A DNA stretch of 38,068 nucleotides. Origin: Escherichia coli (GTDB taxonomy: Bacteria > Pseudomonadota > Gammaproteobacteria > Enterobacterales > Enterobacteriaceae). Under the pieces are notes generated by a model, which saw only the letters and a list, made by a program, of their open reading frames with translations, had not been told where the DNA came from and did no database searches. Made by a program: the position numbers and the translations under genes. The stretch is from NCBI RefSeq assembly GCF_003334385.1, contig NZ_QOWN01000042.1. One strand, written 5' to 3'. Each line of letters opens with the position of its first letter. Position 1 is the stretch's first letter. Below, piece by piece: positions 20,139 through 20,173 of the stretch.

Positions 20139-20173
20139 CTAATTGGCGTTGCATGTACTGCAACGCCAATTAG
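20139..20173. terminator. Perfect 15-bp inverted repeat (ctaattggcgttgca-tgtac-tgcaacgccaattag) immediately after the feaR stop, between convergent feaR and ydbL; probable bidirectional terminator
   Basis: Palindrome read directly. Confidence 0.5.

Follow-up and report, generated by a model that had tools for sequence, protein, structure and literature searches.

The palindrome between feaR and ydbL in Escherichia coli: a U-less hairpin that probably defines transcript 3' ends together with Rho

The convergent Escherichia coli genes feaR and ydbL meet at a perfect palindrome, and the question raised by this locus is what such a palindrome does there. A preliminary description of the region, made from the sequence alone, had suggested that it might be a protein-binding site or an RNA stability element, instead of or as well as a terminator. 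We analysed the palindrome within a stretch of 38,068 nucleotides (the window; contig NZ_QOWN01000042.1), whose DNA resembles that of E. coli K-12 and runs in the opposite orientation to MG1655. Positions given below are those of the window, and MG1655 coordinates were converted as window = 1466516 - MG1655.

The sequence ctaattggcgttgca-tgtac-tgcaacgccaattag, which the description had placed at 20139-20173, is present there as written, and the inverted repeat is indeed perfect. The length of 15 bp that it had been given was too short, however, since a repeat search of the window returned arms of 18 nt each, 100% complementary and separated by a 5-nt loop. Nor does the palindrome begin at the base after the feaR stop codon, as had been stated; the left arm already opens with the TAA (20136-20138), and with arms of 18 nt rather than 15 the stop codon of feaR constitutes the outermost 3 bp of the stem. 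The identities and convergent orientation of the two genes were confirmed by the RefSeq annotation of identical E. coli loci. The features of the locus are as follows.

19233-20138, + strand: feaR coding sequence (RefSeq annotation), with its stop codon within the stem
20136-20153: left arm, TAACTAATTGGCGTTGCA (repeat search and sequence), the first 3 nt being the feaR stop codon
20154-20158: loop, TGTAC (sequence, repeat search and folding)
20159-20176: right arm, TGCAACGCCAATTAGTTA (repeat search)
20310-20636, - strand: ydbL coding sequence (RefSeq annotation), the final gene of ydbH-ynbE-ydbL, facing feaR

The hairpin sits 134-174 nt past the ydbL stop codon. A mechanical open reading frame for ydbL (20310-20717, - strand) would extend the protein to 135 aa from a TTG start, compared with 108-109 aa (327-330 nt) in RefSeq, but this longer frame runs into the end of ynbE and is unlikely to be used. 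The MG1655 sequence is identical at the hairpin (coordinates 1446340-1446380), and the MG1655 annotation of the feaR-ydbL intergenic region contains no feature and no repeat_region.

The palindrome is real and far beyond chance. No other perfect inverted repeat in the 38-kb window is as long, the runner-up measuring 13 bp. When folded as RNA the 41-mer reaches -26.7 kcal/mol on the + strand and -27.6 kcal/mol on the - strand; z is about -9 for both, and none of 200 shuffled sequences folded as well. The inner 9 bp of the 18-bp stem are GC-rich.

A GC-rich stem-loop is one of the hallmarks of an intrinsic terminator; another, the U-tract, is absent here. The tails AAAACAGAUAUUUG (+ strand) and GCGGAAUUUACG (- strand) confirm the earlier remark that a strong U-tract is lacking, and the sequences after the stem, AAAACAGA (+) and GCGGAAUU (-), contain no U-rich tract of 7-8 nt. 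A consensus scan for promoters and terminators found neither a terminator nor a promoter-like site at the hairpin. The view that this is not a typical intrinsic terminator is thus borne out by the missing U-tract and the empty terminator scan. A search of Rfam 15 over the region 19000-21500, with E-values of up to 10, returned only chance miRNA models (E = 0.17 or worse), the best scores being far under the gathering scores, and no known RNA family.

The window also holds a textbook terminator flanked by the convergent genes tynA (15131-17440, + strand) and feaB (17498-19000, - strand).

17453-17479: bidirectional intrinsic terminator of tynA and feaB, AAAAAACGGCACC-G-GGTGCCGTTTTTT, a perfect inverted repeat of 13 bp whose shoulders are A6/T6

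Like the feaR/ydbL hairpin, this canonical element lies between convergent genes and serves both strands, but it possesses an A6 tract and a U6 tract, and the feaR/ydbL hairpin has neither.

Where the transcripts of this locus end has in fact been recorded. In supplementary file 2 of Harris et al. 2026, the hairpin is entry 116 of 306 bidirectional termination sites, under column headings that denote overlapping termination sites in log or stationary phase. Entry 116 covers MG1655 1446336-1446378, a 43-nt overlap, with a dG of -25.7, a stem of 16 and a loop of 5, and is flanked on its 5' side by UCUGUUUU with 0 A and on its 3' side by UAGCGGAA with 1 U. It was detected in log phase, is assigned to the genes feaR:ydbL:ydbH:ynbE and is labelled 'gene_convergent_transcription' and 'gap_region', while its REP column is empty. 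Wang et al. (bioRxiv 10.1101/2022.10.23.513370) cite Ju et al. 2019, a SEnd-seq study, as the source of such a catalogue, and through this attribution we infer that the list originated there.

20138-20180: overlap region of site no. 116 (Harris et al. 2026 supplementary file 2, converted coordinates)

With the coordinates of the entry converted, RNA in the feaR direction has its 3' end near 20180, 4 nt beyond the stem, and RNA in the ydbL direction has its 3' end near 20138, at the stem base. The presence of entry 116 in the catalogue therefore means that transcript 3' ends of both strands map to the base of the hairpin. The preliminary description had taken 3' ends of both strands mapping cleanly to the hairpin, with no other function, as the sign of a simple terminator, and as far as the ends themselves are concerned this is largely what one catalogue, reproduced second-hand, contains. 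Its alternative suggestion of a role at RNA 3' ends or in RNA stability we judge plausible. Other compilations were silent on the site: the curated Term-seq 3' ends in supplementary file 1 of Adams et al. 2021 include no entry at 14463xx, the TERMITe and TRS supplements give no 3' end at the feaR/ydbL hairpin, and a literature search for ydbL plus feaR together returned nothing relevant. The shared 3'-end role of the hairpin is already catalogued and is functionally ordinary.

The overlapping bidirectional sites of SEnd-seq (Ju et al. 2019 as cited by Wang et al. 2022) are described as lying at convergent genes around a stable hairpin that is flanked by both 3' ends and is free of A-tracts and U-tracts. 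The feaR/ydbL hairpin shares these properties, its convergent 3' ends overlapping at a hairpin in the gap between the genes according to entry 116. It differs in its stem, a perfect 16-18 bp against 8-15 bp in most of the entries inspected, and in its relation to Rho: the class is described as Rho-independent, whereas read-through on the ydbL strand at this site is sensitive to bicyclomycin. The REP/BIME elements, which act in 3' UTRs as both terminators and stabilisers (Harris et al. 2026), are defined by a REP consensus and exist in hundreds of copies; the feaR/ydbL hairpin, in contrast, contains no REP sequence and is single-copy.

The evidence for Rho comes from supplementary file 2 of Adams et al. 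2021 (PMC7815308), where a Rho termination region peaks at MG1655 1446501 on the + strand, with a Rho score of 4.03 and p=1.3e-5. This peak corresponds to about position 20015 of the window on the - strand, antisense to feaR and, for polymerase coming from ydbL, ~120 nt past the hairpin. Coverage upstream and downstream is 54/14 without bicyclomycin and 87/91 with it, so that inhibition of Rho lifts the downstream/upstream ratio from 0.26 to 1.05; these values come from 800-nt windows with low read counts and concern the ydbL strand only. Given that downstream coverage equals upstream coverage when Rho is inhibited, the hairpin is, at that resolution, essentially no obstacle to transcription in the ydbL direction. 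The Rho independence that an intrinsic terminator should display is therefore not seen in the published data, which cover the ydbL strand, and the Rho-independent label that the authors of the catalogue apply to the class conflicts with the bicyclomycin data at this site.

19900-20135, - strand: antisense-feaR stretch downstream of the hairpin, with the peak of the Rho region and a mild C>G skew

By composition, the C>G skew downstream of the hairpin is mild in both directions (C/G 1.2-1.4), and 78-nt windows at or above the 95th percentile lie at ~170-250 nt in the ydbL direction and at ~100-150 nt in the feaR direction.

A U-less hairpin with Rho acting beyond it has a well-described counterpart. 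Rho-dependent transcripts were reported by Dar & Sorek 2018 (PMC6061677) to terminate diffusely downstream and to be trimmed back by PNPase and RNase II, until a stable U-less stem-loop stops the exonucleases and then protects the mRNA. The feaR/ydbL hairpin resembles the protective 3' stem-loops of that study (and of Peters et al. as cited there) in being stable and devoid of a U-rich tail. Like them it is a U-less stem-loop by a 3' end and is followed by Rho-dependent termination, seen as bicyclomycin-sensitive read-through on the ydbL strand, and by a region of mild C>G skew. It differs in that a single hairpin serves both strands here, and in that its dependence on exonucleases is presumed.

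The reading that we favor, and to which we assign a probability of roughly 0.6, is that the palindrome is a U-less hairpin that defines 3' ends in concert with Rho and exonuclease trimming, and that it is a young and dispensable element, probably a decayed short-form ERIC whose two arms were either preserved as complements or restored to complementarity again and again. It encodes a very stable U-less stem-loop in the 3' region common to the feaR and ydbH-ynbE-ydbL transcription units, and the mature transcripts of both strands end at its base; the hairpin would define 3' ends without being a self-sufficient intrinsic terminator. RNA polymerase may pause at the hairpin, and in the ydbL direction at least its release would be mostly the work of Rho, within the next 100-250 nt. 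The tail would then be trimmed back by 3'->5' exonucleases as far as the hairpin, which would block them and stabilise the message. The hairpin may also position head-on polymerase collisions, as in the model of Ju, Wang and Liu, a contribution that is probably small because feaR and ydbL are both weakly expressed.

Alternatively, the hairpin could be a genuine factor-independent bidirectional terminator, in either of two forms. The inner 9-bp stem (GGCGUUGCA/UGCAACGCC) might be the effective hairpin, with the AU-rich shoulders AAUUAGUUA serving as a weak U-tract, or, following the collision model, the hairpin might pause RNA polymerase so that collisions of head-on and trailing polymerases release the transcripts. 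The stem base is in fact symmetrical and AU-rich, with 4 U in the first 8 nt past the inner stem on both strands, but the shoulders have AA at their start and are tied up in the 18-bp stem, and the terminator scanner did not place a site here. The hairpin is indeed in the catalogue of overlapping bidirectional sites, with 3' ends of both strands located at it, and the class is described as one without intrinsic-terminator features in which the hairpin is needed to position collisions. Against this stands the coverage of 87 versus 91 with Rho inhibited, which leaves little termination at the hairpin on the ydbL strand. Collisions are moreover reported to need high expression of both genes (Wang et al., 10.1101/2022.10.23.513370), and the base means of feaR and ydbL in an RNA-seq table are only about 94 and 75. 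We consider a terminator that dispenses with Rho unlikely.

The thought that the 15-mer might be a repeated element did not hold, as there are no copies elsewhere in the window and the exact palindrome is single-copy in E. coli; the median of two 'places' per genome that the 41-mer shows across 5426 complete E. coli genomes represents the two strands of one site. The other 133 bp between the two genes are likewise single-copy. The palindrome is carried over at least 80% of its length by 4196 of the 5426 genomes and is missing from about 23%, and its exact K-12 form is found in only 1403 of the 4196 carriers. A scan of public metagenome contigs with the core returned 90 stretches, and all of those analysed (80/80) lay at the feaR-ydbL locus. 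An origin in a mobile element was considered and rejected, the plasmid and phage collections yielding only misfiled chromosomal pieces.

Outside E. coli the same genes meet without the hairpin. Pseudocitrobacter faecalis, P. vendiensis and a Pluralibacter MAG have no hairpin, and their feaR and ydbL stop codons abut with a spacer of 0 nt, which means that each transcript must there end inside the antisense strand of the other gene. The abutting stops read TGATTA and TGATCA (L009:3404-3412, L010:3404-3412 and L011:3405-3413 in our set of Pseudocitrobacter and Pluralibacter loci). A divergent Escherichia (L008), with a FeaR 96% identical, has an unrelated 72-nt spacer, a type that is absent from all complete E. 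coli genomes. Judged by these comparisons, the convergent synteny of feaR and ydbL is older than the hairpin, and the hairpin appears to be a gain, seen only in E. coli so far. An empty insertion site (…CCGCTAAAACAGATA…) was found in none of the 5426 E. coli genomes.

Several strains show rearrangements around the site. In strain BH100 (L006, 1190-1565) the hairpin and ~100 bp of feaR-proximal intergenic DNA are replaced by unrelated DNA, and K-12 homology resumes near position 20246 of the window; this type of replacement, which adjoins a 6.5-kb 'hypothetical protein' gene convergent with ydbL, occurs in roughly 10% of E. coli genomes. In the B2 strains SA186 and UID2309220013 (L003 and L004, 1-253) feaR is reduced to a 252-bp 3' remnant abutting a paaY pseudogene remnant, which indicates that the feaR 5' end, feaB, tynA and the paa cluster were deleted while the hairpin was kept. 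Strain HN68 (L005, 1-114) has an IS4-like ISVsa5 transposase gene in the place of feaR, ~135 bp from the hairpin, so that feaR is disrupted or replaced by an IS element and the hairpin again kept.

Among the carriers the stem itself is polymorphic, with the following haplotypes.

K-12: stem fully paired
WP8 type: pair 10 mismatched as C·C
M11/042/O157 type: left arm changed from CA to TG at its top, giving G-U wobbles in the + strand RNA and A·C mismatches on the - strand
SCU-102: the pair-10 C·C and the left-arm CA->TG together
B2: C-G at pair 10, with the loop-closing pair lost
One B2 variant: additionally G-U at pair 11
Metagenome haplotype (L030/L031): A-T at pair 10

Pair 10-32 is accordingly found as C-G, G-C, A-U and unpaired C·C, the other changes giving G-U on the + strand, and all haplotypes fold at -17 to -27 kcal/mol. 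All four combinations of pair 10 with the top of the stem exist, which argues for recurrent mutation. In a small alignment (A1), 6/36 stem sites were variable against about 12/130 in the rest of the intergenic region. The preservation of pairing fits selection for pairing, and it fits equally well templated quasipalindrome correction without selection. The loss of the palindrome from about a quarter of strains and the common C·C haplotype suggest that any function is weak.

The same variation speaks to the proposal of a protein-binding site, here a DNA operator for a dimeric protein, or of a cruciform-forming site. Perfect dyad symmetry would suit either, and the symmetrical double changes do keep the dyad. 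However, the variation in the arms keeps the pairing and changes the bases (C-G, G-C, A-T), and proteins that recognise a specific sequence do not normally accept such changes. The site is also located where both genes end, no promoter-like site being close by, and it is missing from related genera that have feaR and ydbL. No binding feature is annotated in MG1655, and the literature search places no binding site here. The proposal thus finds no support, and we regard an operator or cruciform as highly improbable. Comparison by eye with consensus sequences likewise eliminated a sigma-54 promoter, a Tus/Ter site, matS, a PdhR box and a PaaX box, none of which agreed in spacing or sequence.

Turning to where the palindrome came from, its sole other weak BLAST match (H30, locus L017) lies between yafP and an rtcB pseudogene. 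The matching sequence, TATACTCGTCATACTTCAAGTTGCATGTACTGCGACTCGAATTATTTAGAGTATA, is present in E. coli genomes at a median of 8 places each and is the 56-bp short form of ERIC/IRU. Full-length ERIC copies, found at this locus or elsewhere (L019, L022), contain a 72-nt core with the ERIC1R and ERIC2 primer sites (primers from PMC3696847, ERIC consensus from PMC2759123), and the short form arises by deletion of these 72 nt between CTGCGAC direct repeats. Both the 128-bp long and the 56-bp short forms are represented among the loci that we collected (L017:232-290, L019:157-288, L020, L021, L022:150-281), and E. coli strains differ in which of the two they have at the yafP-rtcB locus.

20148-20176, + strand: segment resembling the short-form (56-bp) ERIC/IRU, GTTGCATGTACTGCAACGCCAATTAGTTA versus gttgcatgtgctgcgactcgaattattta (nhmmer)

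With an HMM of the short form, the palindrome was the top match in the window at 16.9 bits (E=1.4e-4, nhmmer), an E-value that becomes about 0.02 when scaled to the whole genome. This score was reached by 0/20,000 composition-matched random perfect palindromes, the null maximum being 9.5 bits. The haplotypes scored 19.7 (B2), 18.9 (WP8) and 17.0 bits (K-12 form). An exact 14-mer, GTTGCATGTACTGC, comprising the top of the stem plus the loop, is common to the palindrome and the short-form ERIC, and the arms of the palindrome are 15-16/18 identical to the right-terminal arm of ERIC. The full-length ERIC HMM, on the other hand, was not significant at the palindrome (E=4.9-5.3), and the ERIC1R and ERIC2 primer sites, present in L022, are absent from it. 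Elsewhere in the window, a partial short-form match at 10329-10349 on the - strand (TGTGCTGCAACTCGA, 7.1 bits, E=0.16) falls in a coding region and is probably due to chance.

ERIC/IRU elements are 127-bp, MITE-like imperfect palindromes flanked by TA; they reside in intergenic DNA that is transcribed and are able to influence the stability of mRNA (PMC3184786). The feaR/ydbL palindrome is likewise located in intergenic 3' sequence that is transcribed, and its RNA forms a hairpin; its similarity is to the terminal repeat and the short form. It lacks the ~127-bp ERIC consensus with its central core, the outer termini TATACTCGTCATAC and TTTAGAGTATA are unrecognisable in it, and unlike ERIC it is single-copy, with both arms of the 'right-terminal' type and perfectly complementary. 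It begins and ends with TA, which symmetry alone accounts for; excision of 37 nt plus one TA would keep the feaR TAA stop intact, which is suggestive only. We think that the palindrome probably descends from an ERIC-type element.

A more specific history may be envisaged, in which the TA of the feaR stop received, within the E. coli lineage, a short-form ERIC whose remnant was exapted, giving a shared 3'-end element that related genera lack, with the arms repeatedly re-perfected by quasipalindrome template switching. Template switching would then explain how one pair cycles through C-G, C·C, G-C and A-T. With the stop codon inside the stem, the exapted hairpin might also modulate termination of feaR translation, and might stall ribosomes as is reported for REPs within 15 nt of stop codons. 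This full sequence of events is possible, though we offer it tentatively.

The palindrome could alternatively be a neutral relic, a decayed short-form ERIC/MITE insertion or some other insertion scar, perfected by template switching, whose 3' ends are the unselected effect of a hairpin that blocks exonucleases. Its restriction to E. coli so far and its absence from about 23% of strains agree with such a history, as do the denser variable sites of the stem with their recurrent mutation, the likeness to short ERIC, and the TA ends with a feaR TAA that survives removal of 37 nt plus one TA. Yet the 5426 genomes hold no empty site, the outer termini and core of ERIC cannot be recognised and the full-length model is not significant, and every haplotype still folds. 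A neutral relic is compatible with the 3'-end hairpin rather than exclusive of it; as the explanation of the palindrome in its own right we find it improbable.

The role of the hairpin being already known, the resemblance to ERIC and the cycling of one base pair within the population are minor new observations. The feaR/ydbL hairpin is one of about 300 catalogued hairpins at the ends of convergent E. coli transcripts, and matters little broadly. It does provide a worked example of a U-less 'bidirectional terminator' whose dependence on Rho is indicated by independent published data, and this dependence bears on the debate between polymerase collision and Rho followed by exonuclease trimming. 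The comparison of strains and genera shows how 3'-end hairpins arise and turn over, the present one being polymorphic, dispensable and probably of ERIC-type origin, and the three Watson-Crick states of a single pair in its stem could illustrate either compensatory evolution or templated quasipalindrome correction.
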